DNA from: Verrucomicrobiota bacterium
Lineage (GTDB): Bacteria; Verrucomicrobiota; Verrucomicrobiia; Limisphaerales; AAA164-E04
Direction of reading: 5' to 3'
NCBI GenBank assembly: GCA_047947115.1
Contig: CP170459.1
Span: forward strand, 4,960,001 to 5,024,000
DNA: 64,000 nucleotides
Position numbers and translations under genes: made by a program. Below the pieces are notes generated by a model. That model ran no database searches. It worked only from the letters and a program-made list of their open reading frames with translations, and was not told the origin of the DNA. This document shows positions 9,933-22,114 of the stretch, in pieces. How positions within the stretch are numbered: the stretch's first letter is position 1; the number at the start of each line of letters is the position of its first letter.

Positions 9933-11402
9933 TCAATCTTTCCTGGCGCCCAACACCTTGACACGCAGTCGATCTGACAGGGCTTGAATCATCTCAGGGG
10001 CATCTGAAATGGAAGTCGTTTCACCGGGATCCTGTTCAACATGAGAGAGCACGGCATCCACCACTTTGTCCGCCCCCCTCTCCCACCATTCGGTGTAACG
10101 GTATAAGGGGGTTCGAATAGAATGCCCCACGACCCCTTTTTGTCCAGTCCCGCGCCCATGGGGGTAGGAAGAATATGCGACCTCGCGGTGACTGCTGTGC
10201 GGGTTTTTCAAGACTGGAACCAATGACTTGCCTTGCAGATGATCCGGTCGATCCAACCCACACAGATCACAAAGGGTCGGATACAAATCCAGCAATTCCA
10301 CCAGCGACTGAGTGCGACCTTTCGCCGACGCCATGCTTGGATGACGGATCATCAGCGGCACGCGCGTATCGCATTCAAAGTTGGTATGTTTGCACCAACT
10401 GGAATGATCCCCCAGCTTCCAGCCATGATCAGCCCAAAGCACAACAATAGTGTTTTCGGCAACACCGTGTTCCTCCAATGCATCCAGCAGCACTCCAATA
10501 TTCCGATCTGTATAACTGATGCTGGCGTGATATCCATGAAGGAGTGTTTGGTTCAATTCATCCGAAAACTGCTCTGGAGAACCTTCCTGCGGAACATCAC
10601 TGTAGGCTCGAAGCTCACCTGCATTCTTGTTTCGAGCGTATTCAGGATAACCGGGTGGAACAGACAGATTGTCTGGAAGTTTGAAGGTTTCTGATTGGTA
10701 AAGATCCCAATACTTTTTGGGAGCAATGAATGGCAAATGAGGTTTGGTAAAACCAACAGCCAGGAAAAATGGTTTCGCATCTCTGGCCAACCGAGCAATT
10801 TGCTCCGCCCCCGTACGAGCTCTTACTCCGTCAAAATGGGTCTCATCCCCCGTCTCAAACGATTCAGTGGATGGACCGCGTCGTTTCCCATCGGTTTTAC
10901 TCTGGTTTTCCAGCCTTAAGGCTGTGTTGGCCGGATTGGCATATTCGGTCCCCCCATCGGGAATGATCCAGCGGGTCCAATGATCCGGATCCACTCCTGG
11001 GCCCCGATTGCCATGATAAATCTTACCCAACCCGATGGTCACGTATCCATTGGACTTGAAATGCTGGTTCATGGTGACTATATGCGCCCACCGGTCTCGC
11101 CATCCGGTCACGTGATATGTGCGTTCCTCCAGATACTCGGGATAGAGTCCCGTCATCAAAGAAACGCGACTCGCACCACAAACGGCCTGATTGCAGTAAG
11201 CACGGTCAAAAACAAGCCCCGTAGCCGCCAACCGATCCATGTTGGGTGTTATCGCCTTGCCGCCGTAGCACCCCATTTCGGGCCGCATATCATCAACAGC
11301 GATGAACAGCACATTGAAGGGCCTTTTATCAGCCGCCAAATGCAGCACACCCAGTCCCAGCATCAAGACGGATAAAACCATTCTACGGCAAAGGGGAATC
11401 AT
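9933..11402 (-). CDS. Secreted formylglycine-dependent sulfatase (iduronate-2-sulfatase-like)
   Basis: NVLFIAVDD, CGASR active-site motif, GKIYH, KPHLP, ADHG; signal peptide. Confidence 0.93.
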   Translation of the reverse strand: MIPLCRRMVLSVLMLGLGVLHLAADKRPFNVLFIAVDDMRPEMGCYGGKAITPNMDRLAATGLVFDRAYCNQAVCGASRVSLMTGLYPEYLEERTYHVTGWRDRWAHIVTMNQHFKSNGYVTIGLGKIYHGNRGPGVDPDHWTRWIIPDGGTEYANPANTALRLENQSKTDGKRRGPSTESFETGDETHFDGVRARTGAEQIARLARDAKPFFLAVGFTKPHLPFIAPKKYWDLYQSETFKLPDNLSVPPGYPEYARNKNAGELRAYSDVPQEGSPEQFSDELNQTLLHGYHASISYTDRNIGVLLDALEEHGVAENTIVVLWADHGWKLGDHSSWCKHTNFECDTRVPLMIRHPSMASAKGRTQSLVELLDLYPTLCDLCGLDRPDHLQGKSLVPVLKNPHSSHREVAYSSYPHGRGTGQKGVVGHSIRTPLYRYTEWWERGADKVVDAVLSHVEQDPGETTSISDAPEMIQALSDRLRVKVLGARKD

Positions 11403-11668: not shown

Positions 11669-13543
11669 ATGAAATCTTCGGAATTACGGTATTCAAACCA
11701 TCGAACCAACCTGTTTTTCATGTGCCTGGCTACCATGATGGCTTGCCTCATCGGTTACCAATCTCTTCACGGACAGGGAGCCGACTTCAAAGCTGCAGTT
11801 GGCAACCCACAGATTGGTTCGGTCAACTCATCCGGTTCGCTGCAACTCCCCTACATCACCTGGGGCGGCGATGTGGCCACCTTTCACGCCAACGGAGGAC
11901 TTCAAACCGCCACTGGTTCCATTTTCGACAAGCAGGGATTGAAGTTCAATATGAAGGCTGGTGACGATTTCGCACAGCAGGTCAAGGATTACATGACGGG
12001 CAAATCCCCCTTCCTGCGAGGCACGTTCCGCATGATGGGGATGGCTTCCGAGATCATTGGCTCGGATCCAAGGACCAAAGGGGTTGTCATACTGCAAATG
12101 ACCTGGTCTGCCGGAGATCACATGGTAGCGCGGGAAGGATTGAAAACAATATCAGACCTGAAGGGCAAAAGCATCGCTATCCAGCAAGGCGGACCTCACG
12201 TGGGCATGCTGGACGACATCCTAAAAACCGCCCAGCTCTCCTGGGCGGATGTCAACATTGTCTGGGCCAAGGATTTGACCGGCACTCCGGATTCACCCGC
12301 GGAAATGATGCGTAAAAACCCGCAGATCAGCGCTTGCTTCGCCATCACACCGGACATGTTGGGTTTGTGTGGCGGACTGGAAAGCACCGGATCAGGCGCA
12401 GAAGGCACGATCAAAGGGGCTCATGTACTGGTCTCGACCGCGGAACTCTCCCGGTCCATCGCAGATGTTTATGTGTGCCGTAAAGATTTCTACGACGCTC
12501 ATCGTGACAAGGTCACAAAGTTTGTGACAGGTTACTTGAGAGGATGTGAAGAACTTGTGGACATGAAACGCCAATACGAAGCCGGCGGATCAGCCAATTA
12601 CGAAAAAGTGCTGAAAATGACCCAGCAGATTTACGGCACTGATGTTGTTCCTGTTCCAGAGGAAGCACACGGACTGATATCGGATTGCACCTTTGTTTTG
12701 TATCCGGGCAACGTGACCTTCTTCACGCAAAACAATAATCTGACCAGTTTCAATAAGTTCCAGCAGTCGGCACTGGACCTGGCCGTCAGTCAGGGATATG
12801 CCAAAGAAAAAATGGGGCTCTTTCCATCTGGTTTAAATTATCAATCCGATGACTTCCTGAAGTATCTCTCCAAAACCACCATGGAACAGGGCGGACGATT
12901 CAGAGCCGAGGCCGTTCGGGAGGAAATCGAGCTATTGAGCCAGGGGGGCGAGTTGGACGACAAGACCATCATGAGCTTCACCATCCAGTTCGAACCCAAT
13001 CAGACTGAATTCAGCGCGGTTCAATATGGAGCCGAATTTCAGAGAGTGGTGGAATCTTCCCAACGCTTCGGCAACGCTGTCATTGCCATTCGCGGGCACG
13101 CGGATCCCACCAAGACATTGCTGGATCTGGTGAAAGCAGGCATGCAGAAAGGTGTACTCAAACGCTCCGGAGCCAGCGGCAATTATAACTACTCGCTGCA
13201 AGGCCGCCCTCTGGATCTGGAAGCAACCAAAGATCTGGTCCAATTGATCGAGTCAGGATCCTTTGACGGGGCACAGACATTCAATCCCCGCGAAACCATG
13301 CAAGCCGCCCTCAATCTCTCCAGACTAAGGGCAGAGCAGGTACTCGACGCGATCAGCCAATACGCGAGTTCCAAGGGCGTCACCATCGACACCAGCCAGA
13401 TTCAGCCGGTGGGAGTGGGCATTCGTGAACCATTCATTGCCAAACCAAGTAATTTGAACGAGGCCAAGCAAAACATGCGGGTTGAATTCCGCATCGTACG
13501 TGTTCCGGCTGAGGCAACCACTTCATCCGATTTTGATTTCTGA
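11669..13543 (+). CDS. NMT1/THI5-like solute-binding protein fused to a C-terminal OmpA-like domain
   Basis: Signal peptide. SBP motifs WSAGD, LKGKSIA, IADV. OmpA-like IQFE...GHAD...LSRLRA...VGVG...NMRVEF. Confidence 0.82.
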   Translation: MKSSELRYSNHRTNLFFMCLATMMACLIGYQSLHGQGADFKAAVGNPQIGSVNSSGSLQLPYITWGGDVATFHANGGLQTATGSIFDKQGLKFNMKAGDDFAQQVKDYMTGKSPFLRGTFRMMGMASEIIGSDPRTKGVVILQMTWSAGDHMVAREGLKTISDLKGKSIAIQQGGPHVGMLDDILKTAQLSWADVNIVWAKDLTGTPDSPAEMMRKNPQISACFAITPDMLGLCGGLESTGSGAEGTIKGAHVLVSTAELSRSIADVYVCRKDFYDAHRDKVTKFVTGYLRGCEELVDMKRQYEAGGSANYEKVLKMTQQIYGTDVVPVPEEAHGLISDCTFVLYPGNVTFFTQNNNLTSFNKFQQSALDLAVSQGYAKEKMGLFPSGLNYQSDDFLKYLSKTTMEQGGRFRAEAVREEIELLSQGGELDDKTIMSFTIQFEPNQTEFSAVQYGAEFQRVVESSQRFGNAVIAIRGHADPTKTLLDLVKAGMQKGVLKRSGASGNYNYSLQGRPLDLEATKDLVQLIESGSFDGAQTFNPRETMQAALNLSRLRAEQVLDAISQYASSKGVTIDTSQIQPVGVGIREPFIAKPSNLNEAKQNMRVEFRIVRVPAEATTSSDFDF

Positions 13544-13661
13544 TCCGACCAATACGCACCATACAAGGGAAACCCCAATACACAACCCTCGACGACACGA
13601 CCAGGCAGGTGACACTCGGGTTGCCCCCTTCGTATCCATCCATTGAAGATATAGACAACCG

Positions 13662-14591
13662 ATGAAACGAATATTCATGAGACCGCTGTTGGCAGGCACG
13701 GCCCTGACCTTTCTCCTGGGCGCTTTTTCCAGCCTGATGGGACAATCCTCCATCGATCATGTGGTCATTGTCCTGGATGCTTCCGGATCCATGAAACAAA
13801 AGATGCCGAGTTCGAATCAGCCCAAAATGGAGGCCGCGAAGGAGGCTTTGATCGAAGTTCTGAGCAACATACCTCAAACTACGCACATCGGGCTGCTGGT
13901 ATTCAGCGCGGCAGATGTCAAGGATCACTGGGTGTATCCCCTCGCCTTCCGCAAGGATGACGAACTTCTCCCCGCCATTCGAAACATTCGCCCCAACCGC
14001 GGAACACCATTGGGCCGATACATTAAAATCGGCGCTGATCGGTTACTCGAAGAACGCGCCAAACAATTTGGCTACGGCACCTATCGACTGTTGATCGTCA
14101 CGGATGGAGAAGCAAACGATCGCAACCTGGTCGAACAATATACCCCCGAGGTGCTGTCCCGTGGTTTGAGAATGGATGTGATCGGTGTAGCCATGGATAG
14201 AGATCACACACTTGCCACCAAAGTGCACACCTATCGCCGCGCCAACGACGCCAACACTCTCAAACAAGCCATCGCGGAAGTCTTCGCGGAAGTCGGAGGC
14301 AATCAGGCCGGGAATGTGGCTGACAACGACGCTTTCGAACTGTTGGCCCCCATTCCTGTCGAAGTAGCTTCTGCCGCAATCAATGCCCTTTCCCAATCTG
14401 GAAACAACCCCATTGGCGAAAGCCGAACCAACAGCCCAGATGTCGAGCAAGCCGCTTCAAACACCACGGCACAGCATACCATCACACACACGCGAACAGT
14501 TCAACCCGAGGGGATGGGAAGTGTTTTGAAACTGGTCATTTTGGGAGGTCTTGTGCTACTGGTCCTCCTGAAAGCAATCACGAAAAGATAA
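13662..14591 (+). CDS. Exported von Willebrand factor A domain protein with C-terminal membrane anchor
   Basis: Signal peptide. MIDAS DASGS, GTPL, VTDG. S/T-rich linker followed by VLKLVILGGLVLLVLL-KAITKR. Confidence 0.9.
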   Translation: MKRIFMRPLLAGTALTFLLGAFSSLMGQSSIDHVVIVLDASGSMKQKMPSSNQPKMEAAKEALIEVLSNIPQTTHIGLLVFSAADVKDHWVYPLAFRKDDELLPAIRNIRPNRGTPLGRYIKIGADRLLEERAKQFGYGTYRLLIVTDGEANDRNLVEQYTPEVLSRGLRMDVIGVAMDRDHTLATKVHTYRRANDANTLKQAIAEVFAEVGGNQAGNVADNDAFELLAPIPVEVASAAINALSQSGNNPIGESRTNSPDVEQAASNTTAQHTITHTRTVQPEGMGSVLKLVILGGLVLLVLLKAITKR

Positions 14592-16162
14592 TGAGCGAAC
14601 GTAAGGCGAAGGGATGTTTGGTTGCCACGATGGCGTGGTGTATCATTTTTCTATTGTTGGCAGTGGCGTACAAATACCTGGTGCACCCATATTTCAGCCA
14701 ACGCCTGACAGAGGAAACAGGAACCGTCAGCCGTTACGATCACGAAATCACCATTGCGACCGATTCCTTCAGCGGCTATGCCATTCTTCGTTCTAATGCC
14801 ATGAAACAATGGATGTCGGAACATCAGATCAAACTGAATGTGATCGACGACGGAGCCAATTACTCGGAACGACTCGACAATCTCCGGCGCGGCACAACCC
14901 AGTTGGCTGTGTTCACCATCGATTCCTACTTGAAAGCAGGAGCCAAAGCCGGGGCATTTCCCGGTTCGATCGTTCTGGTGATGGACGAAACACAGGGTGG
15001 AGACGCACTGGTGGCACATGAGTCATCCTTCAAATCCATCCAGGAACTCAATGCGCCATCCACTCGGATCGTTTTGACACCTGATTCTCCAAGTGAATTT
15101 CTTGCACGCGTCATCCTTGCCCACTTCAGCCTGCCGAAAATATCGCCGGACTGGATGACAGGTGAAGACGGCTCGGACAAAGTCCTGAACCATCTCAGGC
15201 AATCAAGTCCCGGAAGCCAAAAAGCATTCGTTCTTTGGCAACCCTATGTGGCCCAAGCTATCAAACTACCGGGTTACAAGGTGTTGCTGGACAGTTCCCA
15301 ACTCAAGGGCTACATCGTGGATGTACTGGTGGCCGAGCGAACGTTTTTGAAAAACAATCAGGAACTCATTCAAACTTTTGCCGAAGGTTACTTCCGCGCT
15401 CTGTATCAGTATCAAAACAAGGAAAACGGACTTCAAAATCTGGTCATCACGGACGCCAACCGGCTCAACCCAGAGAAATTGGACGCGGATCTGGCAGATG
15501 CCGTGGTGAAAGGGATTCATTGGAAAAACACCATGGACAACTATGCCCACTTTGGAATTGCCCGGGAAACTCGCCCGAATTCCCCCCCCCACCTAGAAGA
15601 CATGATCGGAAACATCGTCGAAGTGTTGCTAAAAACGAAGAGCATTGGCACCGATCCATTAAACGGACAGTATAACACGCTCTTTTACGACCAAATCATG
15701 GCCTCCCTGCAGACAAACAACTTTCACCCTGGCCAGGAGCTCCATTTGATATCGGACCTGAGCTCCGAACAACGACCAAGCGCGCCCCCAGACCAACCCC
15801 AACCCTTGACCGAAACGGAGTGGAGTCGATTGATACCCGTCGGGGTGCTTCAAGCCGATGCCATTGGGTTCGTCAGAGGGTCTTCCAGTGTGAGTCGTTC
15901 CAGCGAACGGGCCCTTCAGGCCCTTTCCAAAAAGCTGCAGTCCTTTCCAAATTTCTATCTAAAAGTGATCGGGCAAACCCGGGCTGAAGGCGATGCGGCA
16001 GCCAACCAGCGATTAGCTGCGGCCCGGGCCGAGGCGGTGGCGCAGATGTTGAAACAACATGGAGTGCCCGATTGGCGGATCCGAACCGAAGCATCTCCTT
16101 CCACCAGCGAAAACGGTCAATTTCAATCGGTTGTTTTTGAATTGGGACAGCGTCCTTATTGA
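14591..16162 (+). CDS. Membrane-anchored solute-binding protein fused to a degenerate OmpA-like domain
   Basis: N-terminal TM. DSFSGY, DETQGGDA, SPSEF, IVDVLVA SBP motifs. C-terminal IGF..GS...GQT....NQRLA..RAEAV. TAATG overlap with the vWA gene. Confidence 0.82.
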   Translation: MSERKAKGCLVATMAWCIIFLLLAVAYKYLVHPYFSQRLTEETGTVSRYDHEITIATDSFSGYAILRSNAMKQWMSEHQIKLNVIDDGANYSERLDNLRRGTTQLAVFTIDSYLKAGAKAGAFPGSIVLVMDETQGGDALVAHESSFKSIQELNAPSTRIVLTPDSPSEFLARVILAHFSLPKISPDWMTGEDGSDKVLNHLRQSSPGSQKAFVLWQPYVAQAIKLPGYKVLLDSSQLKGYIVDVLVAERTFLKNNQELIQTFAEGYFRALYQYQNKENGLQNLVITDANRLNPEKLDADLADAVVKGIHWKNTMDNYAHFGIARETRPNSPPHLEDMIGNIVEVLLKTKSIGTDPLNGQYNTLFYDQIMASLQTNNFHPGQELHLISDLSSEQRPSAPPDQPQPLTETEWSRLIPVGVLQADAIGFVRGSSSVSRSSERALQALSKKLQSFPNFYLKVIGQTRAEGDAAANQRLAAARAEAVAQMLKQHGVPDWRIRTEASPSTSENGQFQSVVFELGQRPY

Positions 16163-16231
16163 ACATGTATTCATCCTGCGCCCATTTTAGGACCGACCAA
16201 GTTCACCTGCTGAATGCCCTGATCCAAGCCT

Positions 16232-16259
16232 TTGCAGGGGTAACCGTTTGTGATACATT
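16232..16259 (+). promoter_or_regulatory. Possible internal promoter
   Basis: TTGCAG-N16-TACATT with TG extended -10, 10 nt before ATG 16270. Confidence 0.4.
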
Positions 16260-16269
16260 TGGAATCTCG

Positions 16270-17067
16270 ATGATTCAGGAACCATCCCAGGCATCGCCAA
16301 GCTCGGCGAAAGAAGTCGGCAAGGTAGACATCCGCAAACGGGTGTTGCTTCGCCTGACATCCAGTCCCTTGGTTCTCGGTCCGGTCATGCTCGGGTTTAC
16401 CAGCATGGTTTCCGCATGGGCTTTTGCCCCGCGTCAGGCGGGATTGCTCCTGTTTGGAGGCATCGCGGGATTGCTCATTGGGACAGGCTGCTTTGTTTCC
16501 AAATTATTACTTTCAGGCAACAAGGTGGCTCACAAGGTGCTGTCTGAAATCGAAGAACAACAATTCAATGCCCGACAAAAGGCACTGGACGATCTAAGGA
16601 AAGCTCTGGAACGTTCAGACAACGATCCCCGTCCGGAAGAAGCCCTGGGGGATCTGAGAGCATTGGTGGACACTTTCCGTTCCATTGAGACGTCTGAGGC
16701 ATCGGCACAATGGGCCATCATGGTGGATGTCCGACTCCAGGTGGAATCTCTCTTTGCCCACTGCCTACGCCTGATCGAACAAACCCATCACCTCCGGCTC
16801 ACAGCAGACAAACTCAACACGGAAGCCGCTCGCCACCCCGTTTTGGAGCAACGTGAAGGCATCATTCATGAAATACAGGCTTGCGTGAAACAATTGAGTC
16901 ATTCGCTTGTTTCACTTCAGAAGTTGAGGCATGTCCAATCAGGCACCCATGATCTTCAGCAGATGCGTAAAGAACTCGATGCCAGCCTGGAAGTCGCTCG
17001 CAAAGTGGAAGAAAGAATGCAGGAATGGTCTCTGGGATCCCATGTTCGATCAGTTGATAACATTTGA
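16270..17067 (+). CDS. Two-TM membrane protein with cytoplasmic helical/coiled-coil domain
   Basis: Two hydrophobic helices followed by heptad-rich helices. ATG 16270 preferred over TTG 16159. Confidence 0.75.
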   Translation: MIQEPSQASPSSAKEVGKVDIRKRVLLRLTSSPLVLGPVMLGFTSMVSAWAFAPRQAGLLLFGGIAGLLIGTGCFVSKLLLSGNKVAHKVLSEIEEQQFNARQKALDDLRKALERSDNDPRPEEALGDLRALVDTFRSIETSEASAQWAIMVDVRLQVESLFAHCLRLIEQTHHLRLTADKLNTEAARHPVLEQREGIIHEIQACVKQLSHSLVSLQKLRHVQSGTHDLQQMRKELDASLEVARKVEERMQEWSLGSHVRSVDNI

Positions 17068-17098
17068 TTTGTAAAGCACAGCAACTAAAACAAATATC

Positions 17099-17929
17099 AT
17101 GTTCAAAGCAATCACAAGATGGTTTAAAGCGGTGGGATATCTCCTAACCGGGCAAATTGATTCGGCACGTAAAGTGATCGACACCAATCCACATGTCATC
17201 AAAGCCAAATACGATGAAATTGTCCGGGACAAGATATCCCGCATTCATCAATACAAGCAGGCGGTCGCCGGCCTGATCGCTCAGGAGGAGAAAAAAATCG
17301 CAAAGGTCAAGACCCTCTCCGAGGACGTGGCCAATCTGGAACGACTCAAAGCCGGAGCCCTGGCCAAGGCAAAACAAACCGTTGAGTCATTAAAAAACTC
17401 CGGAAAAACACAAGAGCAGATCCATGCGGACGAGGATTACAAACGCTGTCTGGCTGCTTTCAACGACTTTTCCTCGACGTTGGCTGAAAAACAGGATCGC
17501 ATCACGGAATTGGAACAGGACATTGCCGATTACCGCAAGAACATCAGTGACCACAAGGTTCAGTTGCAGCAGTTGCTGAGAGATGTCGAAAAAGTCAAAT
17601 CCGAAGCCGCCGACACAGTGGCGGATGTCATCACCTCCAAACAGGAAAAAGAATTGGCCGAAACATTGGCGGGCATCGCTCAGGATGGAACAGCTGAAGA
17701 ATTGCAGAACCTGCGCGACATGCGCCAGGAGTTGAAAGCCGAAGCCAAAGTCACCCGTGAACTGGCAGGTACCGACACAAAGGCACAGGAAGCCGAATTT
17801 CTGGAATACGCCCGACAAAGTCAATCCACCTCCGAATTCGATGCCCTCATCGGCCTGGCGTCCGAAACGGAAGAAAAATCAAAACCCTCCGGCGAGACCG
17901 GGAAAAAGGACACTTCGCTGCCGGAATGA
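17099..17929 (+). CDS. PspA/IM30 (Vipp1/ESCRT-III)-like coiled-coil protein
   Basis: Amphipathic N-terminal helix MFKAITRWFKAVGYLL, then D-T-N-P at the position of the PspA 'EDP' hinge, long coiled coils, C-terminal EFDAL. 276 aa. Confidence 0.72.
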   Translation: MFKAITRWFKAVGYLLTGQIDSARKVIDTNPHVIKAKYDEIVRDKISRIHQYKQAVAGLIAQEEKKIAKVKTLSEDVANLERLKAGALAKAKQTVESLKNSGKTQEQIHADEDYKRCLAAFNDFSSTLAEKQDRITELEQDIADYRKNISDHKVQLQQLLRDVEKVKSEAADTVADVITSKQEKELAETLAGIAQDGTAEELQNLRDMRQELKAEAKVTRELAGTDTKAQEAEFLEYARQSQSTSEFDALIGLASETEEKSKPSGETGKKDTSLPE

Positions 17930-17976
17930 CGTCCGAGGCAGCGTCACACCATTTATTTTGATCTGTAAAACCAATC

Positions 17977-19149
17977 ATGAAAGAAAACAAATTCCTATAC
18001 ACACAGTCACTCGCAGCCCTATGCCTTGCCATGGGACTGACCGCCTGCGGTCCACAAAGTGCCACCACCGACTCAGAAACATCCAATGGGAACGCATCCG
18101 GTGGAGTCAGCAACATGGAAGCAACCAACCCCTCACCGGCTGAGGAAAAAAAGGATTCGGGATTACCCACCTTCTCGCTGGCTTGGAGCGAATACCCCTC
18201 ATGGAGCACATTCGGTGTGGCGCATGTCGACAAATTCATCAACGGAAAAAAAGGCGAGCTGGGTTCGCTGGAAGAAAAATGGCAGGTCGATATTGTCCTG
18301 CACGAGGCAGAATATGACGCCTGCATTACCATGTATGGCGCCGGCACCGTCGATGCAGCCTGTCTCACCAACATGGACGCATTGAACCCGGCCATCGCAC
18401 GTCCTTCCACCATGATTCTCCCTACCTCCACAAGCCATGGAGCGGACGCCTGCATCGTGGTGGATTCCATCAATTCCATTCAGGATCTCAAAGGCAAAAA
18501 AGTCTACGGTCTCGAAAAAACGGTTTCTGAATATTGTTTTGTTCGAAACCTGGAAATGGCCGGGGAAAAAGAAAAGGACTATCAGTTCAGCAACATGGAC
18601 CCCGCCGCAGCCGCCGCAGCCATGCAACAAAAGCAGGACGGTGTGGATGGCATCATGGTCTGGAATCCATTCGTCATGGAAACCCTCTCAAAACGTGACG
18701 ACGTGAAAATACTCTTTGATTCCACCAAAACCCCAGGCGAAATCATCGATTCGGTAATCATGGCCCAGGATTCCCTGGCCAAAGAAGGCGGCGAAGCCTT
18801 TGCCTGTGCGATCATCGACGCCTTTTACACTATCGCAAACCGCATGAACCAACCCGAAACCCGCAACGACACATTGATCGCCCTTGGTGAGAAATTTTCC
18901 AACCTCGGACTGGAAGCCATGAACACTGTCGTGCGTCAAACCAAATTCATCAGCACGCCAGGGGAAGCCATCACCTTGTTCAACTCACAGGAACTCCCGC
19001 AAATCATGAAGCGGGTCATCGACTTCTGTGTCGACCACGAAATCACCGGACGCTCCCCTGCCCTCAGCTATGGGACCCCCAAAGACGGGGACAAGGCCGA
19101 ACTTCGTTTCGACCCCAGTTACATCCAAAAAGTCACTATGAAACAGTAG
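17977..19149 (+). CDS. Lipoprotein ABC-type solute-binding protein (NMT1/SsuA/urea-binding-like)
   Basis: Lipobox LTAC; WSEYPSW, TNMDAL, STSHGADA, LKGKKV, VWNPF, PGEIID. Confidence 0.87.
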   Translation: MKENKFLYTQSLAALCLAMGLTACGPQSATTDSETSNGNASGGVSNMEATNPSPAEEKKDSGLPTFSLAWSEYPSWSTFGVAHVDKFINGKKGELGSLEEKWQVDIVLHEAEYDACITMYGAGTVDAACLTNMDALNPAIARPSTMILPTSTSHGADACIVVDSINSIQDLKGKKVYGLEKTVSEYCFVRNLEMAGEKEKDYQFSNMDPAAAAAAMQQKQDGVDGIMVWNPFVMETLSKRDDVKILFDSTKTPGEIIDSVIMAQDSLAKEGGEAFACAIIDAFYTIANRMNQPETRNDTLIALGEKFSNLGLEAMNTVVRQTKFISTPGEAITLFNSQELPQIMKRVIDFCVDHEITGRSPALSYGTPKDGDKAELRFDPSYIQKVTMKQ

Positions 19150-19477
19150 CCTTGAATGAGGCGACTTCATTTCAGTTCCAACGAGAACGAATGCAACGGG
19201 CACACGTCAACCAGTGTGCCCGTTTATTTTTATCCCATTCATGATTCCCGTTAAAAACAATCAACTTCGAGTCAGGGATACAGGAACAATAGCTACCATT
19301 TCATACAAACCATGCTTAATATGGACGCTGGTTCCGGTTCATCGGCATGGCCGTAACAATCAAAAGTCCCGTCAACTTCGTAGCATCAATCCCTGCCCCC
19401 CATTTGGTGAGCATCCGAAAAGCATAGATTAAGCTGGCGATTTTTTAATTTTCCCTATTGAATCTCTTCATTATTCG

Positions 19478-22114
19478 ATGCTCAGGATTGTTTTCACAGG
19501 AATATTTTGCGCTGGGCTGATCCCTTTTTTAACAAAGGGTGAAGACGCCTCGTTGTATTTCGAACAAATCAAACCCGTCCTACAGGAGCGTTGCTACGCA
19601 TGTCATGGCGCATTGAAGCAAAAGGCCGACCTGCGCCTGGATACGGCGTCACTGATTCAAAAGGGCGGTGAGAGCGGAAAAGTAATCCTTGTTTCATCGC
19701 CTGATGAAAGCGAACTGATCAAACGGTTGACCACCAGAGAGGCATCCGACCGCATGCCTCCCGAAGGAAAACCTGTCGATGCACATACCATTCAGGCGAT
19801 TCGCAAATGGATCGCGGCAGGTGCGCCCACGCCCGAACATGAATTACCAGAACAAAATCCCCTGGACCACTGGGCTTTCAAACTTCCTACCCTTGCAAAA
19901 CCAGGCATTCAACACTCCGCAGATCATCCCATCGATGCCATGCTTTCGGAGGCTCTGGAAAGGATGAACCTCATCCCACAACATGAAGCGGAACCGACTT
20001 TATTGATGCGCCGCCTTTTTCTCGACCTGACAGGACTCCCTCCAAGTCCGGAACAAATTGAGCACTATATCCAAAACCCATCGGATACCGAATACGAAAA
20101 AATCGTCGATCAACTGCTTGCTTCACCACAGTATGGCGAGCGTTGGGGAAGACATTGGATGGATGTATGGCGCTACTCGGACTGGTTCGGTCTGGGCGCT
20201 CAACTGCGTTACAGCGCAAAACACATTTGGCATTGGCGCGATTGGATCATTGAATCATTGAACGAGGACAAGGGTTACAATCAGATGATCCGTGAAATGC
20301 TGGCGGCGGATGAACTATATCCAACGGATAATAACCGACTCAGGGCAACCGGGTTCCTTGTTCGCAATTATTTTCTGTTCAACCGCACCACCTGGTTGGA
20401 CAAAACAATCGAGCATACATCCAAGGCATTTCTGGGACTGACCATGCAGTGCGGGAAATGTCATGATCATAAATATGACCCGATCACAGCCCAGGATTAT
20501 TACCGATTCCGAGCCATCCTCGAGCCACATCAGATTCGCACCGATGCGCTCCCCGGAAAATCCGATCTGGAAAAGAATGGGCTACCAAGAGCATTTGACA
20601 TGCACCCGGATGAACTCACTTATGTGCATGTGCGAGGCGACGAGAAGAATCCGGACAAAAGCAATACTATGGTACCGTCGCCTCCGGCATTCCTGAGGGA
20701 TATTCCTTTCAACATCACTCCCGTTTTGCTTCCCCACGAAGCGTCCAGTCCCGCATTGAGGCCTTATGTATTGAACACGCTTCTCGAAGAAGCGAATGAC
20801 CAGATCCGTTCACTGTCAACCAATCCCCCGTCTGAAGTTTCCGAAGCTGGCAACCAGGCATCGCCGTCCTCAAAACCATCTCTTTTGGAACTCGAATTAA
20901 GATCAGCCAGAATGCAACCGGCCGCACTCGTCACAGCGCACCGCGCTATGCGCGCCAAGGTGTATCAACCGGATTCTCCAGATCTGGAAAGCCTGGAACT
21001 TCAAGCTGGTCAAGCAGCTTTCGAACATGAAAAGGCAAAGCTGGAAGTGGAGTTGGCAAGAGCTCGGCAAGCCCTTCAGGATGGAAAGGAAGAGAAAAAG
21101 GATGCTTTGCGCAAGGAGCTGGAAAAAGTGCAGGACCGGTTGGAGAAGCGCATCCGGTCGTTTCAAGAAAACCCCCGAAGTTTCACTCCCATCAGGGCCT
21201 CACTGAAAGCGCTCGAATCGCCCGCCGAAACCGGAGAAGATCGCGGCAAACCCTACCCGAGCCGAAGCACCGGACGTCGTACAGCGCTGGCAAATTGGAT
21301 AGTTCATCCCAACAACCCCCTGACCGCACGTGTTGCCATCAACCATATTTGGATGAGGCATTTTGGTGCTCCGTTGGTAGATCCCGTCACTGATTTCGGA
21401 CGCAGAACACCAGCCCCCAAACTTCAGTCCATACTGGACGATCTGGCAGTGAGATTCATGAACAACAATTGGCGCATGAAGCCCATCCACAGACTGATTG
21501 TCACCAGCAAGGCATACCGCAGATCAAGCTCCGACCTGAATGCTGCGCCGGCCAACTTGACATCCGACTCCGACAACCAATACTTATGGCGACAGAATCC
21601 CAAGCGAATGGAATCTCAAGTCGTAAGGGATAGTCTGCTTTCTTTGGCCAATCGATTGGATTCACAAATGGGTGGCCCCGATATTGATCCAAGCTCCGGC
21701 GCGATTCAGCATCGTCGAAGTTTGTACTTCACCCATTCACGCGACGATCAACACAGATTTCTGAACCTGTTCGATGATGCGTCAATCCTGGCTTGTTACC
21801 GCCGCCCGGAAAGCATCATCCCCCAGCAAGCGCTGGCACTTTCCAACAGCCTGCTATCTACCGAAGCGGCAGAAGCCATTGCTGAAACATTGGAGAAAGA
21901 TCTTGGCGAGGAAGCAACCAACTCCTCGGCCTTCATCAATGCGGCCTTCATACGATTGGTGGGTTGGCGGCCTTCCGAAGAGGAGTTGGAGATTTGTCTG
22001 TCCGCGTTGAATCAATGGCAGGCCGAACCTGCGGATTCCAGGAAAAATCCCAGCCCAAAGGCGAGTCTTGTTCATGCACTCTTGAATCACAACGATTTTA
22101 TCACCATCCGTTAA
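19478..22114 (+). CDS. Planctomycete cytochrome c / DUF1549 (PSCyt2) / DUF1553 (PSD1) protein
   Basis: CYACH and CGKCH haem motifs, [31 protein letters not shown]. Confidence 0.92.

Follow-up and report, generated by a model that had tools for sequence, protein, structure and literature searches.

A block of six genes in the genome of a Verrucomicrobiota bacterium (GenBank assembly GCA_047947115.1) is two-thirds of a conserved nine-gene envelope operon. On the reading towards which we lean somewhat, the operon would encode a membrane-remodelling unit of the ESCRT-III type that has a recycling motor of its own and is likely linked to the uptake or sensing of solutes. The block occupies positions 11669-19149 of the window, by which we mean the whole 64,000-nucleotide stretch analysed (contig CP170459.1, positions 4,960,001 to 5,024,000 of the forward strand). 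It consists of six open reading frames (ORFs), all on the + strand and spaced by 118, -1, -4, 31 and 47 bp, which we call A to F; G, H and I are the genes that lie beyond F in relatives. The nine genes are as follows.

Gene A, 11669-13543, + strand: 624 aa, exported protein with an NMT1/SsuA-type binding domain and an OmpA-like domain
Gene B, 13662-14591, + strand: 309 aa, vWA protein with a signal peptide and a C-terminal membrane anchor
Gene C, 14591-16162, + strand: 523 aa, N-terminal membrane anchor, periplasmic binding domain and OmpA domain
Gene D, 16159-17067, + strand: 302 aa from a TTG at 16159, or 265 aa from an ATG at 16270 (start uncertain), protein with two transmembrane helices
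Gene E, 17099-17929, + strand: 276 aa, predicted divergent PspA/Vipp1 protein (ESCRT-III superfamily)
Gene F, 17977-19149, + strand: 390 aa, lipoprotein solute-binding protein of the SsuA/TauA/TIGR03427 type
Gene G: ATP-binding cassette (ABC) permease, beyond F in relatives
Gene H: ABC ATPase, beyond F in relatives
Gene I: tandem AAA+ ATPase, beyond F in relatives
Genes G and H in the source genome, C1:4204752-4206484: ABC permease and ABC ATPase, motifs intact

A scan of species genomes with E gave 123 confirmed relatives, and the locus counts reported here use the best 80 of these, which comprise 61 envelope-type loci and 19 in which E is accompanied by an AAA+ gene of about 600 residues alone. 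The order A-B-C-D-E-F-G-H-I, present across about ten phyla, is found in 25 of the 44 loci spanned by at least 6 kb upstream and at least 6.5 kb downstream; the remainder are ten E-I pairs, three loci that end at F, two that end at H and four other variants. Among envelope loci with enough downstream DNA (n = 42), F is present in 40, G in at least 36 (a lower bound, as hit merging concealed at least one copy), H in 38 and I in 36, and where 6 kb or more of upstream sequence is available, all four upstream genes are present in 41 of 42 envelope-type loci, a conservation of the upstream gene set far beyond chance. An earlier note, made from the letters of this DNA alone, had described a six-gene locus: the six genes are real, travel together and keep their order, but the unit is incomplete without G, H and I, which belong to it and sit outside the window. 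The same note had seen a system 'rather than a transporter', a description that has to be abandoned, as the six genes are followed by an ABC permease gene in 36 of the 42 loci and by an ABC ATPase gene in 38, both with intact motifs, and the source genome encodes the two elsewhere. The nine-gene system is uncommon, to judge from E: of 301 genomes scanned in each phylum, a relative was found in 6 for Verrucomicrobiota, 15 for Planctomycetota and 6 for a desulfobacterial phylum (a distant one in five of these six), counts that include the centre genome and for which no more than eight candidates per genome were scored. A metagenome scan with a distant E relative gave no match.

In the source genome, the operon is split. 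G, H and I stand together at C1:4204752-4208326, about 770 kb from the six-gene block, and are 78-83% identical to the in-operon copies of a close relative. The split is not an assembly slip, because contigs from independent runs bridge both sites into their flanks, joining the end of F to the PSD1 gene downstream and G-H-I to its own surroundings. Four other genomes in which only A to F are adjacent each carry G-H-I elsewhere, and when five of the six envelope loci without I were checked, I was located elsewhere in all five genomes, as G-H-I in four. In one genome counted among the pair genomes (G013), the break is of another kind, E-I standing away from A-B-C-D-F-G-H, and a few loci have no F, or no F-G-H, between E and I (L052; L116). 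An opposite-strand sulfatase gene lies between F and G in two close relatives (L005 and L006:12107-13534), at the junction where the source genome is split. The source-genome G-H-I (L083:6753-10327) is followed by a gene for an unrelated-looking TAXI/NMT1_3-type membrane protein (L083:10333-11856), and farther on, at about 11940-12220 of L083, many RNA-library contigs with loose ends and a high summed depth suggest a repeated intergenic element, for which Rfam gave no match at gathering scores. Separately, five loci (L035:15574-16596; L052, L053, L117, L118) share a conserved ORF after the AAA+ gene; it is about 340 aa long, has a CxxxxCxxC-like cluster, matches radical-SAM faintly and is possibly an optional tenth gene.

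Protein E is predicted, from profile and fold, to be a divergent PspA/Vipp1 protein of a separate PspA subfamily that falls below the Pfam cut-off. When a profile of 131 E relatives was compared with the PDB, the top four matches were Vipp1/PspA structures (E values 2.5e-8 to 3.1e-8) aligned over two collinear stretches, between which about 25 extra residues lie at the hairpin tip, and PF04012 (PspA_IM30) is the most frequent family among the relatives (17 of 131 at an E value of 0.001 or better). The AlphaFold2 model, with a predicted local distance difference test score (pLDDT) of 79.5, contains helices at residues 3-28, 31-100, 112-195, 198-222 and 225-240, a series that fits the H0, long hairpin, H4 and H5 architecture. 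Ranks 1-7 of a Foldseek search with this model are all Vipp1 (best E value 1.5e-3, TM-score about 0.4-0.5), and VIA-align superposed Vipp1 over 214 of 215 residues (Z 11.3, root mean square deviation 7.7). The earlier suggestion that the protein starting at 17099 has a PspA/ESCRT-III-like fold is thus borne out by both profile and Foldseek ranking. Residues 1-18 have the highest hydrophobic moment of 14 windows (1.65, the next being 1.53; pLDDT there about 60), and in PspA an amphipathic first helix binds membranes (PMC12358876). Sequence identity to E ranges from 53 to 93% across the 80 loci. In one Planctomycetota genome, a distant E relative (L099:9531-10301) directly follows mur/ddl/ftsQ cell-wall genes.

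The AAA+ ATPase is the steadiest neighbour of E. The two occur without the other operon genes in 19 of the 80 loci, with I adjoining E in all 19, and on a quick E tree this pair state requires five changes, at least three of them forced by strong branches. No match to A was found in 14 of the 19 pair genomes, which may be incomplete. The C-terminal ring of I carries Walker A, DEAD, RRPGR and aromatic pore-loop patterns, each in 54 of 54 homologues, and in the N-terminal half 1 homologue of the 54 has a Walker A pattern. Its best PDB relatives are VAT/p97/Cdc48 (E value 2e-25 for VAT/p97 against 3e-11 for Vps4); no MIT domain was found by Pfam at an E value of 0.05 or better, and the CdvC model scores 37 against 650 bits, under its cut-off. 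AAA+ rings of the p97/VAT type thread substrates, and E may be the substrate of I, an assignment that gene order alone does not show. The E-I distance correlation of 0.67 is no higher than that of E with other partners (0.59-0.80), and, as kin share history, it is not evidence of co-evolution.

The pair is also found in other company. An XpaC-family (PF10112) gene for a protein with two transmembrane helices lies directly 5' of E-I, in the place of D, in three Acidobacteriota loci (L028:2177-2833, L050:2212-2907 and L063:4619-5326), and in Planctomycetota (L106, L109, L110) a YqiJ-like gene, a 700-aa ORF without a Pfam match and a gene for a 1,850-aa DUF3686 ATPase precede E or E-I, a context for which two E-I loci were scanned. 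The occurrence of E-I behind XpaC-family or YqiJ-like/DUF3686 genes suggests a portable core. In L088/L089 (G005 C14:43357-45166), the AAA+ gene is in two overlapping pieces and is probably frameshifted.

For D, the AlphaFold2 model (pLDDT 86.9) contains two transmembrane helices, a three-helix bundle that is likely cytoplasmic and a C-terminal helix, and Pfam searches of 54 homologues revealed no family that fits consistently. By language-model features, the nearest named family is PspM (Rv2743c; 0.88, 186 of 256 features). PspM is also nearest (0.87, 184 features) to the two-helix membrane protein of a shorter sister operon predicted by Ravi et al. 2024 (PMC11237479), and we count the two results as one source of evidence. 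An hhalign comparison of D with 30 sister proteins gave a weak signal, with a local probability of 30% (E value 6e-4) and a global one of 67% (E value 6.5e-6), which arises from the 30-row profile alone, single sister proteins giving under 1%. PspM holds one of the PspA forms of Mycobacterium smegmatis at the membrane (bioRxiv 10.64898/2026.09.09.750162), and by analogy it is plausible, if the PspM lead is followed, that D is the membrane anchor of the PspA-like protein; Ravi et al. 2024 (PMC11237479) detected no PspM outside Actinobacteria. Two other identities were tried: a Snf7/ESCRT-III fold, for which the D-E profile comparison gave 1.8% and the structure search returned generic bundles alone, with a Snf7 match limited to a 75-residue hairpin (D may nonetheless be kin), and XpaC, at a probability of 1% against a three-row alignment.

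The remaining proteins supply the envelope and transport side of the operon. NMT1/SsuA-type binding domains are recognized by Pfam and NCBIfam in A, C and F. In A, the NMT1 match (Pfam, E value 6e-8) is joined by a weak match to an NCBIfam OmpA-like hidden Markov model (E value 1e-4) and by a hydrophobic N-terminal segment at residues 15-33; the OmpA-like domain carries an insert of about 55 residues, and RGH[AST]D (44 of 44 homologues) and LSxxRA (41 of 44) are what we take to be its OmpA motifs. C matches Pfam OmpA above the cut-off (E value 4e-12) and TIGR03427 (E value 2e-11), has a transmembrane segment at residues 8-26 and shows G[QH][TA]R in place of the GHTD-type motif (47 homologues). 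B is a Pfam VWA protein (E value 1e-12) with an intact metal-ion-dependent adhesion site (MIDAS; D39-x-S41-x-S43, T115, D148), whose five residues recur in 95% or more of 46 rows, and with a C-terminal transmembrane segment in 42 of 45 homologues. By hydropathy, both A and B carry a signal peptide, B also has a C-terminal anchor, C is anchored at its N terminus and D contains two helices. F scores 163 bits against a cut-off of 334 on TIGR03427, matches SsuA and TauA structures (E values 4e-6 to 1e-4) and has the lipobox LTAC at residues 21-24, a lipobox-like pattern recurring in 27 of 45 homologues. G (BPD_transp_1) and H (ABC_tran) both lie above the Pfam cut-offs, with ABC motifs intact in 24 of 24, and F is likely to be the binding protein of the importer encoded at C1:4204752-4206484. 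These results agree with what had been proposed from the letters alone, namely two binding proteins fused to OmpA (in A by the weak model match together with the conserved motifs), a lipoprotein binding protein, and a layout of wall-tethered binding proteins, vWA protein and two-helix membrane protein that both domains and hydropathy support.

Near-complete copies of the operon also occur in large phages. A search of IMG/VR with an alignment of the AAA protein found eight contigs that encode I. On L154 it is the only operon gene, but the other seven have E and further members of the set as well: A to H and I in L156 and L157 (near-duplicates), L159 and L161, with A cut by the flank; B to H and I in L158; C to H and I in L160; and D, E, F and I in L155. 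In five scanned viral loci, a gene for a PseT-like kinase-phosphatase directly precedes I, in two of them together with CinA (L155-L161, between H and I), and gp32-like genes lie near in two viral loci; such neighbours fit the phage setting of the IMG/VR contigs, as judged from the loci rather than from whole contigs. The 595-kb phage LR756511.1 (L162) carries A to H, with about 47-50% identity for A and E. Viral scans with a close alignment of E and with A found nothing, blanks that reflect sensitivity because the AAA alignment did find copies. A quick tree that included phage E has long branches and is unreliable for origin. According to a 2026 preprint (10.64898/2026.10.24.761521), 15 of 189 pspA genes of huge phages have a complete ABC system next to them, a set that may include the phage loci found here. 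Separately, distant matches to the binding domain of A (24-28% identity over about 240 residues) occur in Bacillus phage G and Lak phages, in 17 large-phage records.

From the gene set and order, the split arrangement, the domains and the motifs, we infer a working scheme in which E would bind the inner membrane through its amphipathic first helix and polymerize as PspA/Vipp1 do, while D would hold E at the membrane or nucleate it there, the part that PspM plays for PspA in mycobacteria. I, in which the N-terminal ring is dead and the C-terminal ring is active, p97/VAT-like and furnished with an aromatic pore loop, would extract E from the polymer and so do the job of Vps4 without being Vps4. 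F would deliver a small polar solute to the ABC importer (G-H), and A and C may bind peptidoglycan and, with B as a metal-dependent vWA adaptor, fix the unit at sites of contact between wall and membrane. The weakest part of the scheme is the link of uptake and wall contact to the polymer and its motor.

Several results weigh against this scheme. For E, PF04012 gives 14.4 bits against a cut-off of 33.9, the family search of the source genome does not list it, no Foldseek match reaches an E value of 0.001, and VIA-align ranks Vipp1 tenth among coiled coils and not above generic ones. For D, the PF25587 model finds no match even at an E value of 5 and none among 54 homologues at 0.01. Five of 20 further loci carry E without an adjacent I; four are described as distant relatives, one lies at a contig edge and one is a second copy in a genome with the full operon. 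The operon can be split at two different places, in the source genome and in G013, and therefore does not require co-transcription, and in phage LR756511.1 no match to I was found at an E value of 1e-20. PspA rods moreover have ATPase activity of their own, and some PspA-bearing organisms have no PspF (PMC11746142), because of which the motor may be dispensable.

The operon could instead be, in essence, an importer of some small compound of nitrogen or sulfur, served by three binding proteins, with E, D and I protecting the membrane or assembling the transporter. F, G and H are indeed closest to the SsuA/TauA/TIGR03427, TauC and NtrCD/TauB types, the ABC motifs are intact throughout, and G and H are retained even in split operons; yet every score is far below the cut-offs of the named families, the 19 of 80 loci with E-I have no transport gene at all (nor, in 14 of these possibly incomplete genomes, a match to A), and Rfam at gathering scores returned no match, riboswitches included, in the five sources searched, so that we consider this account unlikely. 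We find it rather improbable that the genes form a conflict system which detects when phages, toxins or antibiotics attack the envelope and responds by sealing or shedding membrane, and which large phages would use to keep the host intact or to exclude competitors. The patchy spread across the three sampled phyla, the seven of eight viral AAA contigs with E and other operon genes, the A to H set of the 595-kb phage and the position of E-I behind XpaC-like or YqiJ/DUF3686 stress genes would suit it, but the PADLOC 2023 models give generic ATPase and coiled-coil matches and nothing system-specific for the nine proteins, the flanks are of sulfatase, PSD1 and DUF1501 types and not a defence island, and E is strongly conserved. 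This account also overlaps the remodelling reading, from which it differs mainly in the trigger.

The model of the earlier note, a transporter-free sensor of six genes in which a signal would pass from the binding proteins through the vWA protein and the two-helix membrane protein to the PspA polymer, we regard as very improbable. The topologies fit, only the six genes are adjacent in the source genome and in four others, and the few loci without F or F-G-H between E and I lean the same way; however, all four of those genomes, and the source genome itself, carry G-H-I elsewhere, which contradicts the six genes as a stand-alone unit. Beyond the remodelling reading itself, a more far-reaching version can be put forward, tentatively and as a doubtful proposition: a bacterial ESCRT-III with an independently recruited p97-like tandem AAA+ ATPase that threads a PspA-type subunit, a PspM-superfamily anchor outside Actinobacteria and a switch in which solute receptors tethered to the wall act with an ABC ATPase, with jumbo phages carrying the whole machine for control of the host membrane.

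The system had been called undescribed, which is no longer accurate, since Ravi et al. 2024 (PMC11237479) predicted the shorter sister operon from genomes. They describe PspA with a tandem AAA+ protein, the first copy of which is inactive, in the order PspA, PBPB+OmpA, permease, ABC-ATPase, TM-'Snf7' and inactive-AAA+AAA (example OGG56892.1), and suggest that membranes are remodelled at the expense of ATP in a process tied to transport. The two operons share PspA, OmpA-fused binding proteins (here A and C), a permease, an ABC-ATPase and a tandem AAA+ protein whose N-terminal ring is dead, and each has a helical protein anchored in the membrane, the two being weakly alike by profile; they differ in gene order and in the vWA protein, second OmpA-fused binding protein and lipoprotein binding protein that are additional here. 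The term 'vWA' is absent from the portion of their supplement that we consulted, and their web app may list such a variant. Two of our loci, L119 and L121, have the exact order of Ravi et al. and are assigned to that type by gene order; on the nine-gene profiles they score 195 and 143 bits for the AAA protein and 119 and 92 bits for the binding protein, as distant relatives. Sister-operon PspAs pass the Pfam cut-off but score at most 18 bits on the E profile, in line with E as a separate subfamily.

Among experimentally familiar systems, E resembles Vipp1/IM30 and PspA in helix pattern, amphipathic first helix and profile and Foldseek matches, and differs from them in the additional hairpin-tip residues. 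The combination of a probable ESCRT-III-fold protein with a classic-clade pore-loop AAA+ protein recalls ESCRT-III plus Vps4/CdvC as a functional analogy, whereas I has no MIT domain by Pfam, possesses two AAA-like halves and is nearer to VAT/p97. No match to PspF, PspB or PspC of the classical proteobacterial Psp system was found among the nine proteins, to which that search was confined. As in the mycobacterial ClgR-PspA-PspM (Rv2743c) system, a two-helix membrane protein of similar size (D) adjoins the pspA-like gene, but there is no ClgR and D gives no match to PF25587. F, G and H belong to the SsuABC, TauABC and TIGR03427 importer types, with TauC and NtrCD/TauB nearest for G and H, but unlike the named importers they are joined to membrane-remodelling genes. 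A literature search for an experimental test of the operon, its scope excluding subscription journals and bioRxiv supplements, found none and returned the prediction by Ravi et al. alone.

ORF coordinates and Pfam confirm the borders proposed for the block, six co-oriented genes with short gaps or overlaps set between a sulfatase gene and a PSD1 gene.

Sulfatase gene, divergent, 9933-11402, - strand: upstream boundary of the six-gene block
Intrinsic-terminator-like hairpin, 19195-19224, + strand: 11-bp stem followed by a T run, closing the six-gene unit
PSCyt/PSD1 gene, starting at 19478: downstream boundary of the six-gene block

The region contains 14 terminator-like sites in total, no excess over shuffled sequence (mean 12), and fewer promoter-like sites than shuffled sequence. 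The guanine-cytosine content of the block equals that of its flanks, and the nearest relatives of the source genome are uncultured Verrucomicrobiota. Parts of the stretch turn up in 20 RNA-library runs; these come from about 17 studies, most of which are estuarine or aquatic, and RNA-library contigs span the locus and its flanks; such contigs cannot show transcription or its level and are no measure of expression.

The present analysis adds the split arrangement, the vWA protein and three binding proteins, the insert of about 25 residues in E, the weak PspM-like signal of D and the near-complete copies on phage contigs. As the idea of ATP-dependent remodelling is already in print as a prediction, the value of the system lies in testability more than in discovery. 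A 2025 review (PMC7619361) states that a Vps4-like ATPase 'appears absent in bacteria', and a 2024 paper (PMC11746142) leaves the turnover of PspA rods to chaperones or PspF. The E-I pair offers two soluble proteins with which the question of a bacterial ESCRT-III disassembly motor can be put directly, and the near-complete copies in large phages suggest that the machine matters during infection.

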